A stretch of 9,753 nucleotides of DNA, from IMG/VR virus record IMGVR_UViG_2734482541_000013; one strand, 5' to 3'. The translations under genes and the position numbers were made by a program. Of this stretch, positions 236-9,511 are shown in pieces. The notes under the pieces were generated by a model. It had not been told where the DNA came from. It did not search any database and saw nothing but the letters and a program-made list of their open reading frames with translations. This DNA comes from a virus (Duplodnaviria; Heunggongvirae; Uroviricota; Caudoviricetes). Position 1 is the stretch's first letter, and each line of letters starts with the position of its first letter.

Positions 236-1318
236 TCATTTTCTCTGGCTGATCTTTACCGGATAACCATCCCGAAGATCAATTAAGTGCTCCGGTTCAG
301 AAGCAAACCATGCATAAGATCCCCACGCCAATTCTGGTATTGCCTTTTTAAAAGGCAGAGCACTTCTGTCCATAAATGCCGTAAGGAATGCAAGATTTTT
401 CTCGCTGAACCCAGCGTCAATAGCCAAATGAGTGAGAGTAACTTTTCGTTCCCTGTTTATAGGCCCATCTGTCGCAACTACTTCAGTGAAAACTACAAGC
501 ATGTCCGAACCCGTTCGGTCCTCTCCCAAATCAATCAAAATAATATCTGGAAGTGCTTTTGAGGCATCAATATTCAGCCCCAATGCTTTTGCCAATACAT
601 CATCCTGAGCAACAACTTTATTCCCGGATTCAGACAACCAGAGCACAGTTGGATTCTTAAGAAAATTAGGAGCAAAAACTTCGATGACGGCCTTAGCTAT
701 TGTACTTGACGGGCCCGGAGCTAAAGTTCTCTTCTCTCCATTTGGGAAAGTGACGACTACGGCATCAGCAGCAATCACTGCCCCTGATTTCAATAAACGC
801 AACCTAGCAAGAGCGGCTTTGTTCAAATGATTTTCTTGCCAGGAACTTATTGCACTCAGCAGCGAATCTCCTTCAAGCCCGGCATCAAAGAGTGCTGCAA
901 AAGAGCGATTCAAACTGTAACGAGGACGAGAGGATGTGGTGGGTATACCTTTACGCTCAACAATTGCATTGCAAGGTATTAGGCCATTTTTTATAGTTTC
1001 ATCACGTATTGGCTCACGCGTATTTTCCGCATACCATGCATCAGCAGGCCTTATCTTTTGTTTAGAGAAAGTCATCTTTACCCAGCTTTCTCTGGACGCA
1101 TCATCAGTAAGAGCAGCCTGCGAATCTCCCATACTTACAACCTGGCTGGGCCTTATCCATCGCCCCAGCCCCTCAACCGCACCAGCATAAAACATGACAA
1201 AAATTGTTTTTGCAGCTATTTCCCGAATTAAATATCCACGATTCTCAGTCCCTTCAGGGAAAATTAATTGTAATCTTTCCCGGATAACATTCAATGGGGG
1301 AACAACAGGCAGATTCAT
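236..1318 (-). CDS. Putative restriction endonuclease or other effector partnered with the upstream methyltransferase (Type II R-M-like cassette); family unverified
   Basis: 360-aa ORF. Its ATG (1316-1318) overlaps the methyltransferase stop (1315-1317) as ATGA, implying translational coupling. Sampled 60-nt lines are about 35-43% GC versus about 52% in neighbouring phage genes. I could not place a PD-(D/E)xK motif with confidence; resemblance to BsuBI/PstI-family endonucleases is a tentative recollection only. Confidence 0.5.
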   Translation of the reverse strand: MNLPVVPPLNVIRERLQLIFPEGTENRGYLIREIAAKTIFVMFYAGAVEGLGRWIRPSQVVSMGDSQAALTDDASRESWVKMTFSKQKIRPADAWYAENTREPIRDETIKNGLIPCNAIVERKGIPTTSSRPRYSLNRSFAALFDAGLEGDSLLSAISSWQENHLNKAALARLRLLKSGAVIAADAVVVTFPNGEKRTLAPGPSSTIAKAVIEVFAPNFLKNPTVLWLSESGNKVVAQDDVLAKALGLNIDASKALPDIILIDLGEDRTGSDMLVVFTEVVATDGPINRERKVTLTHLAIDAGFSEKNLAFLTAFMDRSALPFKKAIPELAWGSYAWFASEPEHLIDLRDGYPVKISQRK

Positions 1319-3147
1319 GCAATCATCACTCCATAGAAACCAGCGATAGTTCTCTCAATAATCCGTCTGTGGACGCCAGCATCAATTAACGATTGAATCT
1401 CCATCACCTGCTCCAGAGAAGGCAACGGGATTGAATTCAATTCATAGGCCGAAACAGCAACACTTCCGCTTATACACCTGAACGCCCGATCGACAACATG
1501 CGAATTAAGTAGCATATCAATAACATCAGGGCGAACCGCAGAGAACAATCCGTTTGAATATACAATATTAATATGGTTTTCAACTACTACGCCACCAGTT
1601 TCATCTATAAATCCCTGAGGTAAAATTGCCGCTAAAATCCTTCTGTCCTGTTCCTTCGATGTTGTCCGCTGAACAAGCACACATTCAGATTTTGTCACAA
1701 GGAAACCCTGTTGTGGGGTTATATCGATATAGGGAACATGATTTTTTCTGTCTGCACTAAAACGAAAACCAGCTGAAGTTATTGATTCCGCCCAGACTAA
1801 TGGGTAGCTATTTTTTCCTTTCGTCGTACGCAACTGCGACTTAAATCGATTCCAGACTAACTGACCTGTAGAGACTGAGTATCCCAGATCAGCTAAACGC
1901 GTAGACATCTGTTTTAATACATTAAGAAAACAGGCATCATCTTTAACGCGTGGCAAAAGCCACGTTGCTCCACCTTTTTCTATATCAACATTACCTATTT
2001 TCTCAATTTTTGCTTTGTTCAACCCCTTAGGGACAAGTGAGGATACCTGGGCCCGAACTTTATGTTCTCCCGCCTTGAATGCTGTCAACATTGTTTCCTG
2101 GAGAACATCGTCAAAGACCCCATCCCTGTCAGTGACGAAATCAAGGGCATACGGAGTAGTTTTTTCGGTCAAAAGGGTTCGCAGCGCGGTGAAATACTGC
2201 CCACCAAGAAAAGAAGTTGGCGTAAGAAATGCAATAACTCCTGTTTTCTCTTTAACCATGCGAACAGCTAAGTCGGTGAACAATCCATATAGATTTGCAT
2301 GACCAAATAACGAACGAGAATATTTTTCTCTCGTTTTAATATCGAGAGTGACACGTCCGTAAGGCGGATTCCCTACCACAAGATCATAACCAGAAAATTT
2401 ATCTTGCTGAAGCGCATCAGCAACAATAATTGTATCTTCAGGCAATCTACGTTTTACCTTTACACATAGTGGCATTAGTACAGATTCGAGCAATACCAAA
2501 CTCATCCAAGCCGCAAATGGATCGATCTCTATCCCCTTTAAACGACGACTGATTCTCCTCAACATCCATTCAGGGGAAGACCCCTTGTCTTTTTTTAACA
2601 TTCGAATGGCTACTGGTGCCAAAAATGCACCGCCACCACACGCAGGATCAATAACCGATGCATGAGAAAAATCAACACCAGACTTTTCAGCCAGGTCCAA
2701 GAGACGCGCTACCAAAGGTGGGGGGGTATAGTAAGCCCCCAATTCCGAACGGTAAGCGGATGGCAGCATTACCGTATAAATTGACCCAATCAGATATCCA
2801 GCGTCCTCCGCCGGAAATTGAGCAATAAGCTCACCTGTTCGTTCAGCGAGCTCGCGTGCATCACATGGAATGTCTTCTATGTAAACAGTGTGCGGTACTG
2901 CCCTCATTTTAATGCTGCTTTTTTGCTTTTTTGCAAGGGTATCCCAATATGCAGCTACGATGCTGAAGCAGTATGAGCGGGCATGCATCAACCTTGACTG
3001 CCCGGTTTTGTAATTGCCCGCATAACCTTTGGCCATGGCTTTACAAGTTTGATATCTTTCCAGATTAGAAAACTCATTATCTGTAAAAAAATCAAAATGT
3101 TGCACATTCATAATGTAAAATCCTAATGTATCAAACATGCGGGCCAT
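1315..3147 (-). CDS. N6-adenine DNA methyltransferase, gamma-class (Eco57I/TaqI-like), with a C-terminal target-recognition region
   Basis: 610-aa ORF. Motif X-like GAYYTP at residues 137-142; SAM-binding motif I DPACGGGAF at residues 167-175 (nt 2626-2649); catalytic motif IV VVGNPPYG with NPPY at residues 260-263 (nt 2359-2370). Motif order X-I-IV followed by about 340 aa is typical of gamma-class amino-methyltransferases with a C-terminal TRD. Confidence 0.85.
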   Translation of the reverse strand: MARMFDTLGFYIMNVQHFDFFTDNEFSNLERYQTCKAMAKGYAGNYKTGQSRLMHARSYCFSIVAAYWDTLAKKQKSSIKMRAVPHTVYIEDIPCDARELAERTGELIAQFPAEDAGYLIGSIYTVMLPSAYRSELGAYYTPPPLVARLLDLAEKSGVDFSHASVIDPACGGGAFLAPVAIRMLKKDKGSSPEWMLRRISRRLKGIEIDPFAAWMSLVLLESVLMPLCVKVKRRLPEDTIIVADALQQDKFSGYDLVVGNPPYGRVTLDIKTREKYSRSLFGHANLYGLFTDLAVRMVKEKTGVIAFLTPTSFLGGQYFTALRTLLTEKTTPYALDFVTDRDGVFDDVLQETMLTAFKAGEHKVRAQVSSLVPKGLNKAKIEKIGNVDIEKGGATWLLPRVKDDACFLNVLKQMSTRLADLGYSVSTGQLVWNRFKSQLRTTKGKNSYPLVWAESITSAGFRFSADRKNHVPYIDITPQQGFLVTKSECVLVQRTTSKEQDRRILAAILPQGFIDETGGVVVENHINIVYSNGLFSAVRPDVIDMLLNSHVVDRAFRCISGSVAVSAYELNSIPLPSLEQVMEIQSLIDAGVHRRIIERTIAGFYGVMIA

Positions 3148-5556: not shown

Positions 5557-5847
5557 NNNNNNNNNNNNNNNNNNNNNNNNNNNNNNNNNNNNNNNNNNNN
5601 NNNNNNNNNNNNNNNNNNNNNNNNNNNNNNNNNNNNNNNNNNNNNNNNNNNNNNNNNNNNNNNNNNNNNNNNNNNNNNNNNNNNNNNNNNNNNNNNNNNN
5701 NNNNNNNNNNNNNNNNNNNNNNNNNNNNNNNNNNNNNNNNNNNNNNNNNNNNNNNNNNNNNNNNNNNNNNNNNNNNNNNNNNNNNNNNNNNNNNNNNNNN
5801 NNNNNNNNNNNNNNNNNNNNNNNNNNNNNNNNNNNNNNNNNNNNNNN
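5557..5847. other. Assembly gap (291 N)
   Basis: Uninterrupted run of n characters from 5557 to 5847. Confidence 0.99.
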
Positions 5848-6900: not shown

Positions 6901-7326
6901 TCAATGTACTGCCACAGCATTTCCTGCCGGGCCACCACGGTTCATCTGATTGAAACCGGCGATTGCCACTGCGACAAAATCATCAGCGTCTCTCACCAGT
7001 CGTTCATGCGTCTCCACCAGTTCCCGAAAATAAGCTGAACTGTGGCTGCGCATTCGAGCCACCAGCGGAGGTGGCATTGCCCTTTCGATCGCAGGTAACA
7101 ACGCCTGAATTTTTTCAACAGCGTCAGGGGTGTCTTTATCCAGCCAACGGAAAATCTTTTGGGTGTTGAGATAAAGCGTGTTGTGCTTGCTGTCGTTATG
7201 CAGAACCGGAAACGTCATTCCCAGTTCGAAATAAACCCTGGTTATTTCAGCTGCCGGAACTTTTTCACCGTCCGGATGCGCCCAGGCTTTCATCGCCATG
7301 CGGATGTGTTCATGCTTGATTTTCAT
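6901..7326 (-). CDS. YdaT-like protein (Rac-prophage YdaT family; CII-position regulator / putative toxin)
   Basis: 141-aa ORF starting MKIKHEHI, which matches my recollection of the Rac YdaT N-terminus. Its ATG (7324-7326) overlaps the stop of the upstream cro-like gene as ATGA. Confidence 0.6.
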   Translation of the reverse strand: MKIKHEHIRMAMKAWAHPDGEKVPAAEITRVYFELGMTFPVLHNDSKHNTLYLNTQKIFRWLDKDTPDAVEKIQALLPAIERAMPPPLVARMRSHSSAYFRELVETHERLVRDADDFVAVAIAGFNQMNRGGPAGNAVAVH

Positions 7327-7586
7327 GAATCAACCCCCGCCGATGGTTGTGTGTTAGCCTGAAACTCAGCAGGCAAGCCGTCAGTTGGGTTGGGGTAGGT
7401 TTTACTGTCAATCTCATGTGGGGTCACCACCCATCCCGTTGCTTCACACCAACGTAATATTTTTTCTCCTGTAAGTTTTGCACGCCCCGTTATAACGTGG
7501 CTGACCATCCCTTGGGATGCGCCAACAATCTCAGCAAATGAACTCTGGGTTATATGAAAATGATGCAAATATTCTCCAAGATTCAT
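7323..7586 (-). CDS. Cro/YdaS-like helix-turn-helix DNA-binding protein
   Basis: HTH segment ITQSSFAEIVGASQGMVSHVITGRAKLT. ATG at 7584-7586; the six-frame ORF extends to a TTG at 7613. Divergent from the repressor gene across an operator-containing intergenic region. Confidence 0.65.
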   Translation of the reverse strand: MNLGEYLHHFHITQSSFAEIVGASQGMVSHVITGRAKLTGEKILRWCEATGWVVTPHEIDSKTYPNPTDGLPAEFQANTQPSAGVDS

Positions 7587-7622
7587 AATCCGCCCTATGT
7601 GATGTGTTACCAATGCATAATT

Positions 7623-7662
7623 AATAGCACTGTTATTTTTAAAAGTAAATAGTGATACTATT
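7623..7662. promoter_or_regulatory. OR-like divergent promoter/operator region: two 15-bp operator-like repeats
   Basis: AATAGCACTGTTATT (7623-7637) and AATAGTGATACTATT (7648-7662), 25 bp centre to centre, between the divergent repressor and cro-like genes. Each matches a copy in the downstream pair at 13/15. Confidence 0.45.
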
Positions 7663-7697
7663 TCAAAGTGATTAGCAATCTTATTAGAATTGGATGT

Positions 7698-8198
7698 ATG
7701 AAAAGAAAATCATTGTCAGACACCGACCTCAACGCCGCCAGAAGACTGAAAGAAATCTGGATGGCAAAGAAATCTCAGTTGGGATTGACTCAGGAACGTG
7801 CGGCGGAAATTATGGGGTTTTCAACACAAGGGGCGGTAAGTCACTACCTAAATGGTCAAACCCCACTAAACCTTGAGGCTGTTCTAAAGTTTGCTGGCTT
7901 ACTGAAAGTTCCCCCTGAGTCAATCAGGCCAGACATGGTAGATTTGCTGCAAATTGCAAGGATGTATTGTCGAGAACCACAGCAAGATAACATAGTCGCA
8001 TTACCAGCAGACACAGAACAAACAGAGGATGAACTACCGTTTGCCGTAGAGCCGATGGAACGAGATTTAATCCATACGTTCAGAGCTTTTCCGAAAGAAG
8101 ATCAAGAACACATGCTTCAGGAGATGAAAGATAAAAAAGAATCAATGGATCGTACGGTTGCGCGGTGGTTAGCTGCACAAAAAGGCCGTCGCGCCTAA
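7698..8198 (+). CDS. CI-like HTH transcriptional repressor (PaaR2-like regulator of the downstream toxin-antitoxin pair)
   Basis: XRE-type HTH LTQERAAEIMGFSTQGAVSHYLNGQ. ATG at 7698 is in frame with the 176-aa six-frame ORF, whose upstream part lacks an RBS. Followed 19 bp later by the antitoxin gene. Confidence 0.7.
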   Translation: MKRKSLSDTDLNAARRLKEIWMAKKSQLGLTQERAAEIMGFSTQGAVSHYLNGQTPLNLEAVLKFAGLLKVPPESIRPDMVDLLQIARMYCREPQQDNIVALPADTEQTEDELPFAVEPMERDLIHTFRAFPKEDQEHMLQEMKDKKESMDRTVARWLAAQKGRRA

Positions 8199-8217
8199 AT
8201 CAGAGGAGATATGTAAA

Positions 8218-8412
8218 ATGAGTACAGTCCTTTCCCCAATGGTTTCAGAATTTGAGACAGTTGAGCAAGAAAATAGTTACAACGAATGGCTGCGGGCCAA
8301 AGTAGCAGCAAGCCTCGCGGATCCCCGCCCGGCGATTCCGCATGATGAGGTAATGGCGGAAATGGAACAAATTATTGCCCAAATTGCTGCTGCAACTCAC
8401 AGAGGTGAATAA
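8218..8412 (+). CDS. paaA2: PaaA2-like antitoxin (partner of ParE-family toxin)
   Basis: RBS AGAGGAGA 8-9 nt upstream. The N-terminal 45 aa (SPMVSEFET.EQENSYNEWLRAKVA.SLADPRPAIPHDEV) match my recollection of E. coli O157 PaaA2; the C-terminal tail differs, so the paralog (PaaA1 vs PaaA2) is unresolved. Stop TAA overlaps the toxin ATG (TAATG). Confidence 0.75.
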   Translation: MSTVLSPMVSEFETVEQENSYNEWLRAKVAASLADPRPAIPHDEVMAEMEQIIAQIAAATHRGE

Positions 8413-8702
8413 TGTTACCCGTTTTATGGCTACCATCTGCTCGTGATGATTTGCGCCAGATCGTAGCCTACATAGCTAAAGAAAATCCCGCGGCAGCACG
8501 CAGAATGAAAATTCGAATTGAAACATCCGTTTTGCCGCTCACAGAGCATCCTTACCTGTATCCTCCAAGCGAGCGAGTTCTTGGTCTTCGTGAAATTGTA
8601 ACTCATCCTAACTACATCATCCTTTACCGAGTAACAGCATCAAGCATAGAAGTAGTAAATATTGTGCATTCTCGAAGACAGTATCCAGGCAAAAACAGTT
8701 AA
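8412..8702 (+). CDS. parE2: ParE/RelE-superfamily toxin (ParE2-like)
   Basis: 96-aa ORF, start overlapping the antitoxin stop. Size and sequence character (LPVLWLPSARDDLRQIVAYIAKENPAAA ... IILYRV ... IEVVNIVHSRR) fit ParE-family toxins; operon order regulator-antitoxin-toxin. Confidence 0.75.
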   Translation: MLPVLWLPSARDDLRQIVAYIAKENPAAARRMKIRIETSVLPLTEHPYLYPPSERVLGLREIVTHPNYIILYRVTASSIEVVNIVHSRRQYPGKNS

Positions 8703-8718
8703 TTATTCCCGCCGACAG

Positions 8719-8743
8719 AACCACCTTAGGGTGGTTTTTTCTT
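8719..8743 (+). terminator. Rho-independent terminator downstream of the toxin gene
   Basis: Stem AACCACC (8719-8725), loop TTAG, stem GGTGGTT (8730-8736), followed by a T-run (8735-8740) and CTT; 17 bp after the toxin stop codon. Confidence 0.65.
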
Positions 8744-8758
8744 GCCCCAACAAAAAAC

Positions 8759-8800
8759 AATAACGATGCTATTTACATCAAAAAAAATAATGATGCTATT
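8759..8800. promoter_or_regulatory. OL-like operator pair, probably overlapping an early-left promoter
   Basis: AATAACGATGCTATT (8759-8773) and AATAATGATGCTATT (8786-8800), a 14/15 direct repeat 27 bp apart, matching the repeats at 7623-7662. Confidence 0.45.
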
Positions 8801-8981
8801 GTTTCAGGCGTCAACCCACCCCGCCCCACAGAATGCAGGGCAATACTTCGAGTTACCAGACAGTGGTCAGGGGTTAAGTAGCCAGCCCGAGGCGTAAGAA
8901 CATGACGGCAGGGTTCAATCTTTAACTATGCAGCAGGTTTTTTGTTCCGCCACCCCGGCGTTAAGGGGAAATGAGGTCAGC

Positions 8982-9134
8982 ATGGATACTATCGATCTTG
9001 GCAACAACGAATCTCTGGTGTGCGGCGTGTTCCCTAACCAGGATGGAACGTTTACCGCCATGACGTATACCAAAAGCAAAACGTTTAAAACCGAATCTGG
9101 CGCGCGTTGCTGGTTAGCCAGAAACACTGACTGA
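8982..9134 (+). CDS. Small prophage protein, YdaF/YdfA-like (DUF1391-like)
   Basis: 50-aa ORF MDTIDLGNNESLV... with RBS GAGG 6 nt upstream of ATG 8982. The N-terminus matches my recollection of the small gene next to the repressor in Rac/Qin prophages; family name from memory, not verified. Confidence 0.5.
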   Translation: MDTIDLGNNESLVCGVFPNQDGTFTAMTYTKSKTFKTESGARCWLARNTD

Positions 9135-9511
9135 TGAGGCTGACGATGGAATTTAAAGATTTACCGTCTGATGTACAGAAAACAGCAGCTCATACATTGC
9201 ATTCTGTGCTGCGAGAAATCGGGAAAGATATTGCAAGCGAGCCAGCAAAAGATCTGGCCCGGAAAATCAAGACCGCTTTCGTTGAGCTTTATAATGTTGG
9301 CACTGACTCTGAAACTGTCGAGACCAAGACCGTAAGTTCACCAATATTCTCACTTGAGCCAAGCGTATTATCAGGTGAAATATGCACCGAGATTTCCAGC
9401 GAACTGCTTCCGGTAATACGAGAAGCAATTCGCCGTCGCGGTTTGGATGGAAGTTATGATCATGACGTTCTGCAAGTTCTCAGGACAATGGTGACTTCAC
9501 TGGGGATTTGA
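9134..9511 (+). CDS. Hypothetical prophage early protein
   Basis: ATG 9134 overlaps the previous stop (TGATG). An alternative ATG at 9146 (MEFKD...) has GAGG 8 nt upstream and may be the true start. No motif recognised. Confidence 0.5.
   Translation: MRLTMEFKDLPSDVQKTAAHTLHSVLREIGKDIASEPAKDLARKIKTAFVELYNVGTDSETVETKTVSSPIFSLEPSVLSGEICTEISSELLPVIREAIRRRGLDGSYDHDVLQVLRTMVTSLGI

Follow-up and report, generated by a model that had tools for sequence, protein, structure and literature searches.

The closest described relative of the locus analyzed here is paaR2-paaA2-parE2 of the cryptic prophage CP-933P of Escherichia coli O157:H7, an operon that encodes a lambda CI-like regulator together with an antitoxin and a toxin (Hallez 2010; Jurenas 2021, PMC8630535; Prolic-Kalinsek 2023, PMC9986795). 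CP-933P has a CI/Cro/CII-like regulation with an OL/PL region and a bistable switch, and plasmid stabilization has been reported for the system (PMC8630535). The paaR2 mRNA is leaderless by experiment (PMC8630535), and octamerization of PaaR2 has been shown experimentally as well. According to the account of Hallez 2010 given in PMC4803016, the O157 homologue is co-transcribed from a promoter 5' of paaR, and PaaR was originally described in Hallez 2010 as a regulator of the toxin-antitoxin (TA) pair, as discussed in PMC8630535. The TA reporter of CP-933P is appreciably expressed in both states of the switch, and ParE2 activity could not be detected at steady state (PMC8630535). Neutralization of the cognate ParE and degradation by ClpAP/ClpXP are established only for PaaA2. 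The CP-933P pair is explicitly stated to replace rexA and rexB (PMC9986795), the same cI-rexA-rexB comparison is drawn in the paper on the bistable switch (PMC8630535), and Jurenas et al. proposed that the TA pair guards against replacement of the immunity region (PMC8630535).

The window, which is the whole stretch of 9,753 nucleotides analyzed here, contains the immunity region of a lambda-like prophage, with a genuine operon for a repressor, an antitoxin and a toxin. The three-component paaR-paaA-parE system has been published, and the locus is very probably an uncharacterized heteroimmune allele of it, carried by a lambdoid prophage of the Qin/Rac/CP-933 type. It is not a discovery, since earlier work on O157:H7 had described and tested this arrangement. 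Its features are the following:

6901-7326, minus strand: ydaT-like gene for a CII-type activator of 141 aa (Pfam, PDB, PHROG)
7316-7333: predicted YdaT operator box, TTGATTTTCATGAATCAA, lying across the stop codon of ydaS and the start codon of ydaT
7323-7586, minus strand: gene of a Cro-like HTH protein (ydaS analogue), 87 aa from the ATG at 7586 (Pfam, PHROG)
7621-7649, minus strand: PR-like promoter for ydaS-ydaT, with TTTACT at 7649-7644, a 17-nt spacer and TATTAA at 7626-7621, assigned by hand
7623-7637: predicted OR1-like operator, AATAGCACTGTTATT
7648-7662: predicted OR2-like operator, AATAGTGATACTATT, a perfect palindrome that abuts the PRM -35 hexamer
7662-7690, plus strand: PRM-like promoter, TTCAAA-17-TAGAAT, from the promoter scan
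7671-7685: weak predicted OR3-like operator, ATTAGCAATCTTATT, inside the PRM spacer
7698-8198, plus strand: HTH regulator gene, ATG at 7698, 166 aa, with a lambda CI-type N-domain (residues 1-91), a disordered linker (93-112) and a helical PaaR/DicA-type C-domain (119-165)
8218-8412, plus strand: PaaA-family antitoxin gene, 64 aa, without a DNA-binding domain (Pfam, PDB, identity comparison)
8412-8702, plus strand: ParE-family toxin gene, 96 aa (Pfam, PDB, identity comparison)
8717-8743, plus strand: intrinsic terminator closing the operon (folding, same position in relatives)
8759-8773: predicted OL-like operator, AATAACGATGCTATT
8772-8802, plus strand: PL-like promoter towards ydfA and dicB, with -35 TTTACA and -10 TATTGT, assigned by hand
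8786-8800: predicted OL-like operator, AATAATGATGCTATT

The three reading frames of the operon are co-directional and have the layout of PaaR-type operons, with the HTH gene directly 5' of paaA-parE and one terminator after parE. The gap between regulator and antitoxin is 19 nt, with GAGGAG nine bases 5' of the antitoxin ATG, and the antitoxin and toxin genes overlap by 1 nt in TAATG, where the last A of TAA (8410-8412) is the first base of ATG (8412-8414). The terminator has the stem AGAACCACC/GGUGGUUUU at 8717-8738, the loop UUAG and a U-run after it; a simple terminator scan did not call it, but folding did pick up the hairpin (-15.1 kcal/mol, z = -3.3, with 1 of 200 shuffles as stable). 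A hairpin with a T-run is also found at the same position in two relatives, the 78%-identical homologue L003 and the O157:H7 locus L002, whose stem differs in sequence. The three genes, the 1-nt overlap and the rho-independent terminator after the toxin were all found within 7698-8743, the span given in an earlier note on this DNA. From this anatomy and the O157 homologue we infer a single transcript over regulator, paaA and parE.

It is unlikely that the TA pair is instead an autonomous module, merely adjacent to the repressor and driven by its own promoter inside the regulator gene. A promoter-like sequence (TTGACT-17-AATTAT, 7785-7813, plus strand) does lie inside that gene, and the TA reporter of CP-933P is on in both switch states; however, the scanned region has three promoter-like sites against 2.9 expected by chance, the 7785-7813 site is not kept in L003 (GTTAAC...AATTCT), the regulator and paaA are separated by only those 19 nt, which hold no terminator, and co-transcription from upstream of paaR is reported for O157 in the account cited above. 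PaaA also has no DNA-binding domain, so that an autonomous module would lack an autoregulator. The promoter-like site, like a perfect 12-nt inverted repeat (7783-7794/7914-7925), is taken as chance because it is not conserved in L003.

The 64-aa antitoxin has PaaA2 (PF21217) as its sole Pfam match (3e-23, 81.9 bits against a cutoff of 27) and matches the PaaA2 structure 3zbe over residues 4-56 (1.4e-23). The toxin matches Pfam ParE_toxin (1.8e-17, 64.1 bits against a cutoff of 23), and its best PDB match is ParE2 (5cw7, 6.7e-37 over residues 1-93), to which it is 67% identical. These family matches are far beyond chance and bear out the naming of the pair as PaaA2-like antitoxin and ParE-family toxin. 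The NCBIfam names, “RelB family antitoxin” and “RelE/StbE”, were set aside as less informative than the more specific matches to the solved structures of PaaA2 and ParE2. The expected alignment of all three proteins to the O157 loci holds for PaaA and ParE, but for the regulator only through about 50 C-terminal residues.

The regulator, which had been described as a CI-like HTH protein, does match the lambda CI N-domain by sequence and by fold. It matches Pfam HTH_3 (8e-9), and its N-domain matches the lambda CI N-domain structure 1lmb (phmmer, 2.9e-9, about 39% identity). Foldseek aligns the AlphaFold model (mean pLDDT 78.5) with 1lmb and 3kz3 at an rmsd of 1.0-2.0 Å and 37-40% identity, with target-normalized TM-scores of 0.82-0.93 between the N-domain and CI N-domain structures, so that both methods identify the five-helix N-terminal DNA-binding domain of the CI type. 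The match to the full-length CI structure 3bdn is restricted to the N-domain, and Pfam finds no Peptidase_S24 in the protein; the approximately 75 residues after the N-domain are modeled as the disordered linker and two helices (119-129 and 133-165, pLDDT 81-92). This C-domain is 52-56% identical to the PaaR2-type and the other O157 regulator, carries the PaaR C-terminal signature (...FxAFPxEDQ..M..EMK.KKESM...ARWLAAQK...) in the alignment, and matches the NCBIfam DicA model (7e-8) and K-12 DicA (2e-6, 29% over 51 aa). Full-length homology to PaaR1 or PaaR2 was not found, as only the C-terminal 44-64 residues align and the HTH domains do not. Judged from its sequence, the regulator is not simply PaaR2-like, since the likeness to PaaR2 is confined to its C-terminal ~50 residues, and its CI-like N-domain may be the first direct sequence link of PaaR-type regulators to lambda CI. 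We did not adopt the upstream GTG at 7668 as the start (176 aa), because it falls within the operator region, because the alignment to lambda CI begins with the second residue of the protein read from ATG 7698, and because RefSeq annotates L001, a near-identical locus, from that same ATG.

The remaining elements of the published CP-933P circuit, namely cro/ydaS, cII/ydaT, the YdaT box, OR/OL and the PRM-like promoter, are recognizable as predicted features present in the window. The YdaT-like protein matches Pfam YdaT_toxin (5e-9), the structures 3c4r (4e-79) and 8bt1 (3e-70), and PHROG 163, “CII-like transcriptional activator” (3e-40). The predicted box is an exact match to the published TTGATT-N6-AATCAA and the sole one in the window, with 0.04 expected by chance; the site and its position have been described for CP-933P (PMC9986795). 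The Cro-like protein matches Pfam HTH_3 (5e-4) and the transcriptional repressors of PHROG 35 (8e-17), and RefSeq places its start at the same ATG in L001. It is 85% identical to its counterpart in the homoimmune-type L003, but identity to the counterparts in heteroimmune loci drops to 36% and 25%.

The operator pattern AATAG-N5-CTATT, with at most one mismatch, occurs four times in the window against 0.17 expected, a number reached by 0 of 200 shuffles, and all four matches fall in two intergenic regions. The OR3-like site has two mismatches and is alone at chance level; it was assigned by position and spacing, and it is identical in L001. The half-sites AATAG/CTATT also occur at OR and OL of L001 and L003, which have the same type of N-domain, and are absent from OR and OL of L002, L004 and L005, which have others; L004 and L005 bear the published GTTTAGT repeats instead. 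Both hexamers of the PR-like promoter are covered by the predicted operators, with the same geometry at the PL-like site. The two promoters each fit 8 of 12 consensus positions; the PR-like one is below the threshold of the scan tool, and neither was called by the scan. The -10 hexamer of the PRM-like promoter, TAGAAT, ends 7 nt 5' of the A of the regulator ATG, and there is no Shine-Dalgarno sequence in these 7 nt. This geometry fits leaderless translation of the regulator, as in paaR2, and resembles that of lambda cI. The PL-like promoter, analogous to PL933P of CP-933P (PMC8630535), has a suboptimal spacer of 19 nt, compared with 17 nt in L001 and L003. Another promoter-like site, at 8814-8787 on the minus strand, is of a kind found at chance frequency. 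Rfam at gathering thresholds gave no match in the whole window, so the conserved leader that follows OL belongs to no known RNA family.

CP-933P/Sp12 has ydaT, ydaS, the regulator, PaaA, ParE, the terminator, OL/PL and ydfA in the same order and orientation as the window. Compared with CP-933P, the window PaaA is 75% identical to PaaA2, its ParE 67% to ParE2 and its YdaT 77-81% to the CP-933P protein, the YdaT box is identical, and the C-terminal ~45 residues of the regulator are 52% identical to PaaR2. Both loci have a promoter geometry that fits leaderless translation and lack an S24 peptidase domain. They differ in the regulator (166 aa in the window, 123 aa in CP-933P), whose N-domain in the window is homologous to that of lambda CI and has no relation to that of PaaR2, in the Cro-like protein, which is only 25% identical, and in the operators, with three OR and two OL sites of AATAG-N5-CTATT in the window and GTTTAGTAA-type repeats in CP-933P.

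L002 is a second O157:H7 copy of the locus, which we take to be paaR1-paaA1-parE1 of CP-933M. It has the closest TA pair of a characterized strain (PaaA 77%, ParE 86% identical) and a regulator C-domain 56% identical over 64 aa, and its DNA similarity to the window runs from 8071 to 9125. L002 has another HTH domain in a 133-aa regulator, a cro gene product 36% identical to that of the window, and AAAAACTGT/ACAGTTTTT palindromes as operators. With lambda, the window shares a homologous repressor N-domain (about 39% identity, rmsd 1-2 Å), a divergent cro across three operators, here spaced 25 and 23 bp, a second operator set at the PL-like promoter, and accessory genes co-directional with the repressor and directly 3' of it. 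In contrast to lambda, where the CI C-domain is an S24 LexA-like autocleavage domain, the C-domain is short, helical and of the PaaR/DicA type, the cargo consists of a type II TA pair without homology to RexA/RexB, and the CII analogue is a POU-type YdaT protein. The K-12 prophage Qin has the same backbone, with ydfA 90% identical in DNA, a homologous regulator C-domain and DicA facing a divergent cro-like dicC, but its regulator has another N-terminal HTH domain and only a 166-bp spacer lies between dicA and ydfA. The TA pair thus appears as cargo inserted in a slot, since in Qin dicA directly precedes ydfA without it.

The immunity-type-specific DNA is only window 7397-8071, which covers the N-terminal part of cro, OR and the repressor N-domain, while the repressor C-domain and the TA pair are common to the O157 and O111 loci. 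The allele is called heteroimmune because the cro gene and the operators change along with the regulator N-domain. Of 5426 complete E. coli genomes, 72 carry the locus, which also occurs in Shigella sonnei, with identical proteins on record from both species, and the phage collection has one related record, Escherichia phage Evi, which carries a PaaR2-type allele with parE unannotated. Among relatives, the slot after the repressor holds HigB-HigA in a Salmonella diarizonae prophage and, in another, a HipA_2 kinase and DUF3037 pair after a two-HTH repressor.

The earlier note had likened the position of the TA pair to that of rexAB after cI, a comparison already in print for CP-933P (PMC9986795, PMC8630535), and had called it an addiction/abortive-type module. 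Addiction is backed by the plasmid stabilization data of the homologue; the abortive part drew no support, with no PADLOC match and no homology to RexAB. That the module acts like RexAB, by abortive infection or phage exclusion from the repressor transcript of the lysogen, is improbable. Its position and orientation are those of rexAB, and HigBA or HipA-like cargo in the slot of relatives fits a hotspot of defense cargo, but none of the three proteins matches any PADLOC model, so a catalogued defense-system label was not given to the operon. RexA/RexB homology was not found either, Pfam giving PaaA2 and ParE, which leaves a likeness of position only, and what has been published for the homologue is post-segregational killing, with no report of phage exclusion. 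Less probable still is that the regulator is a dedicated third TA component, the DNA-binding module of a “split antitoxin” rather than the prophage immunity repressor, as the first description of PaaR by Hallez 2010, in the account of PMC8630535, might suggest, because its operator motif recurs 3' of the operon at the OL/PL-like site before ydfA and the genes towards dicB, a region with three operator sites separates it from a divergent Cro-like gene, its N-domain is homologous to that of lambda CI, its C-domain is common to DicA, the repressor of Qin with no TA pair downstream, and its relatives hold the same slot upstream of unrelated cargo.

For a heteroimmune paaR-paaA-parE allele, a mechanism can be proposed in which we infer every step from the window sequence and the experiments on the O157 homologue. 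Through its CI-like N-domain, the repressor would bind 15-bp palindromes of the form AATAG-N5-CTATT, of which OR (7623-7685) has three and OL (8759-8800) has two, and it would oligomerize through its helical PaaR/DicA-type C-domain. Bound repressor would silence the divergent PR-like promoter of ydaS/cro, ydaT/cII and the replication genes, and the PL-like promoter from ydfA towards dicB. From the site that abuts the PRM -35 hexamer it would stimulate its own putative leaderless transcript, which the weak third OR site would then cap; since the N-domain has no relation to that of PaaR1 or PaaR2, the order of binding and the self-activation are extrapolations from lambda and CP-933P. The transcript would cross the 19-nt gap into paaA, TAATG would couple translation of parE to that of paaA, and transcription would end at 8717-8743. 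YdaT at its box (7316-7333) may offer a second, CII/PRE-like route to turning on the operon. PaaA would only neutralize ParE and is presumed labile to Clp proteases. A cell in which the immunity region was lost or replaced would then be killed or arrested by the stable ParE set free, which would amount to addiction to, or stabilization of, the prophage. The switch should be RecA-insensitive, because the repressor has no S24 autocleavage domain.

Alone, the locus is of small importance, as its architecture, regulation and rexAB analogy are already published, and its modest value is that of a naturally occurring domain-swap allele. The CI-like N-domain and readable predicted operators would make it convenient for testing how the PaaR-type C-domain takes the place of the lambda CI C-domain in cooperativity and OL-OR looping, and the locus can be used to test ParE addiction as protection against replacement of the immunity region by recombination. 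Tentatively, and with less than even confidence, the slot after the PaaR/DicA-type C-domain may be a general PRM-driven cargo site in Qin/Rac/CP-933-like prophages, whose repressors would consist of exchangeable DNA-binding domains on a constant oligomerization domain. If this is true, the TA pair would kill recombinants that swap out the immunity region.

The predicted operon is composed of three co-directional ORFs, which lie at the coordinates that an earlier note had given them:

7698 (ATG) to 8198 (stop), plus strand: regulator, 166 aa
8218-8412, plus strand: antitoxin, 64 aa
8412-8702, plus strand: toxin, 96 aa

The 19-nt gap between regulator and antitoxin contains a GAGGAG ribosome-binding site, and the antitoxin TAA (8410-8412) and the toxin ATG share one A in TAATG, which is the 1-nt overlap that had been described. 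The proposed rho-independent terminator is recovered by RNA folding as a 9-bp hairpin, 8717-8738, with a U-run after it (-15.1 kcal/mol, z = -3.3; 1 of 200 shuffles folds equally well); a consensus terminator scan did not flag this hairpin and U-run after the toxin ORF. A hairpin plus T-run is kept at the same position in the homoimmune-type locus of E. coli O104:H4 (L003) and in the O157:H7 copy (L002), with a different stem sequence in the latter.

The 64-aa protein matches the PFAM model PaaA2 (3e-23, 81.9 bits against a cutoff of 27) and the E. coli O157 PaaA2 structure (3zbe, 1.4e-23), and the 96-aa protein matches ParE_toxin (1.8e-17) and, over residues 1-93, the solved ParE2 (5cw7, 6.7e-37), confirming the PaaA2-like antitoxin and the ParE-family toxin. 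No DNA-binding domain was detected in the PaaA-family protein. The abortive-type role suggested for the module finds no support, with neither PADLOC hits nor RexAB homology.

This three-component arrangement is that of the published paaR-paaA-parE systems of O157:H7, so the earlier reading is correct and already in the literature. In the summary of Hallez et al. (2010) in PMC4803016, the three genes are co-transcribed from a sigma-70 promoter 5' of paaR, PaaA-ParE gives partial repression while full repression needs PaaR, and O157:H7 has two non-cross-reacting paralogues. For the O157:H7 prophage CP-933P, Jurenas et al. (2021, PMC8630535) describe PaaR2, YdaS, and YdaT as analogues of CI, Cro, and CII, a leaderless paaR2, OR- and OL/PL-type sites, a locus that is bistable and stabilises plasmids, and a PaaR2 without an autocleavage domain. 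Prolic-Kalinsek et al. (2023, PMC9986795) state for this system that the TA pair takes the place of rexA and rexB. The characterised regulators are termed CI analogues "despite lacking sequence similarity".

The regulator studied here differs from them in carrying a real CI-type N-domain on a PaaR/DicA-type C-domain. It has the HTH_3 domain (PFAM), and its first ~90 residues match the lambda CI N-terminal domain (1lmb, phmmer 2.9e-9), which upholds the CI-like HTH repressor assignment and makes them a true homologue of that domain. Its AlphaFold model (mean pLDDT 78.5) superposes on lambda CI N-domain structures with rmsd of 1.0-2.0 Å at 37-40% identity, followed by a disordered linker (93-112) and two helices (119-129 and 133-165). 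The S24 peptidase domain is absent from the 166-aa protein, and its C-domain, homologous to that of DicA, the repressor of the K-12 cryptic prophage Qin (NCBIfam 7e-8, BLASTP 2e-6), places it outside the S24 CI/LexA family. By full-length homology it is not a PaaR2-like regulator, while the locus has the architecture that defines a paaR-paaA-parE system. Some relatives (P0013 and P0016-P0023, 240-255 aa) have tandem HTH domains, CI-like then PaaR1-like, before the shared C-domain (alignment A1), and the 166-aa regulator looks like these proteins minus the second HTH.

The genes and predicted sites that surround the operon are the following:

6901-7326, minus strand: YdaT gene, after the Cro-like gene (PDB 3c4r 4e-79; PHROG "CII-like transcriptional activator" 3e-40)
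7323-7586, minus strand: Cro-like HTH gene, facing the regulator
7623, 7648, and 7671: three predicted 15-bp OR sites of the form AATAG-N5-CTATT, between regulator and cro, centres 25 and 23 bp apart
8759 and 8786: two predicted OL sites of the same form, just past the terminator
7662-7690: PRM-like promoter, TTCAAA-17-TAGAAT
7649-7644 (-35) and 7626-7621 (-10), minus strand: PR-like promoter, hand-assigned, 8 of 12 consensus positions
8772-8802, plus strand: PL-like promoter, hand-assigned, 8 of 12 consensus positions

Allowing one mismatch, AATAG-N5-CTATT occurs four times in the window, always within the OR and OL regions (0.17 expected; 0 of 200 shuffles reach four), and the regulator-cro intergenic region is AT-rich (24% GC over 7614-7697). 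The PRM-like promoter ends 7 nt 5' of the regulator ATG, with no space for a Shine-Dalgarno; this geometry is that of the experimentally leaderless paaR2 and is also found in lambda cI. At the putative PR-like and PL-like promoters both hexamers are covered by operators in the same arrangement. An A8 run at 8780-8787 makes the PL-like spacer 19 nt against 17 nt in L003 and in the near-identical locus L001, and could weaken the promoter or be a homopolymer length error. An independent promoter for the TA pair is unlikely: the only candidate, 7785-7813, has chance frequency and is not kept in L003.

The published YdaT operator, TTGATT-N6-AATCAA (PMC9986795), has a single, exact match in the window, at the ydaS/ydaT junction (7316-7333; 0.04 expected by chance). 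Beyond ydaT lie DNA-replication genes, among them a DnaC/IstB-like ATPase gene, whose junction with an O-like replication gene is masked by 291 N bases (5557-5847), so the 624-aa fusion in ORF listings is artificial. The prophage also carries a restriction-modification pair on the minus strand (236-3147, GC content lower at 0.44), formed by a BsuBI/PstI-family endonuclease (360 aa, 9e-45) and an adjoining Eco57I/N6-type DNA methylase (610 aa).

Over 1.8 kb the locus shares 98.4% identity with a prophage of E. coli FDAARGOS_944 (L001), which also has Q, RusA, lysis genes, dicB, an exonuclease, and an integrase adjoining a tRNA-Ser gene. Of 5426 complete E. coli genomes, 72 contain most of the query; TA homologues are found in 842 genomes, and an identical regulator is on record from Shigella sonnei. 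The window proteins were compared with three loci:

Identity to the window proteins
L003 (O104:H4): ParE 89%, PaaA 83%, YdaT 77%, Cro-like 85%
L002 (O157:H7): ParE 86%, PaaA 77%, YdaT 81%, Cro-like 36%
L004 (O111, PaaR2 type): ParE 67%, PaaA 75%, YdaT 77%, Cro-like 25%

The solved PaaA2 and ParE2 have the same sequences as PaaA and ParE of L004, whose regulator begins MQKKE, as published for PaaR2. The expected alignment to O157-type proteins holds for PaaA (75-77%) and ParE (67-86%). The regulator shares 78% identity with the L003 regulator along its full length and aligns with those of L002 and L004 only over the C-terminal 44-64 residues (52-56% identity).

DNA similarity to the heteroimmune loci ends at ~7397 and restarts at ~8071-8133. 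The AATAG-N5-CTATT sites are at OR and OL of L001 and L003 and absent from L002, L004, and L005 (Escherichia phage Evi); L004 and L005 have the published GTTTAGT repeats in their place. The N-domain, cro gene, and operators therefore change together, as is characteristic of an immunity-specificity cassette, and the C-domain and TA pair form a separate block common to the loci. Evi (LR597642.1; L005:4278-4854) is the one sequenced phage record with the module, in a PaaR2-type allele, and its DNA match continues beyond the annotated paaA through most of parE, where no gene is annotated. The segment between the OL sites and ydfA (8812-8971) is 93-94% identical even to L004 and L005, with flanks only ~76% identical or unalignable; it fits a conserved leader or nut-like element, but Rfam has no match in it.

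In Qin, ydfA directly follows dicA and the TA pair is absent, so the pair is cargo placed after the repressor and before the PL side. After ydfA, a 125-aa ORF with no PFAM match (9134-9511, plus strand) stands where Qin and L001 have ydfB and ydfC. Regulator relatives precede different cargo (L006:3001-5360, L007:1512-3871, L008:3001-4339, L010:3001-3915): a HipA_2 kinase-like gene and DUF3037 in one, HigB and a HigA-like HTH gene in a Salmonella diarizonae prophage, and an unknown 112-120-aa ORF in Salmonella houtenae. This slot behind the repressor seems to be a variable hotspot of TA/defence cargo. A regulator acting purely as a "split antitoxin" component is contradicted by this other cargo, the OL sites, the divergent cro gene, and the DicA relationship.

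The feature is real and was correctly interpreted, as one more allele of a system already known and characterised by experiment. A cro gene of its own and palindromic predicted operators set the locus apart from the characterised PaaR systems; it is a heteroimmune family member and is itself uncharacterised. The repressor would bind OR and OL, silencing the PR-like and PL-like promoters, and would regulate its own synthesis from the PRM-like promoter. The leaderless transcript from this promoter would also carry paaA and parE, ending at the terminator, and YdaT bound at its box would act as a CII/PRE-like route into the operon. If PaaA is labile and ParE stable, a cell that lost the immunity region, or had it replaced, would be killed.
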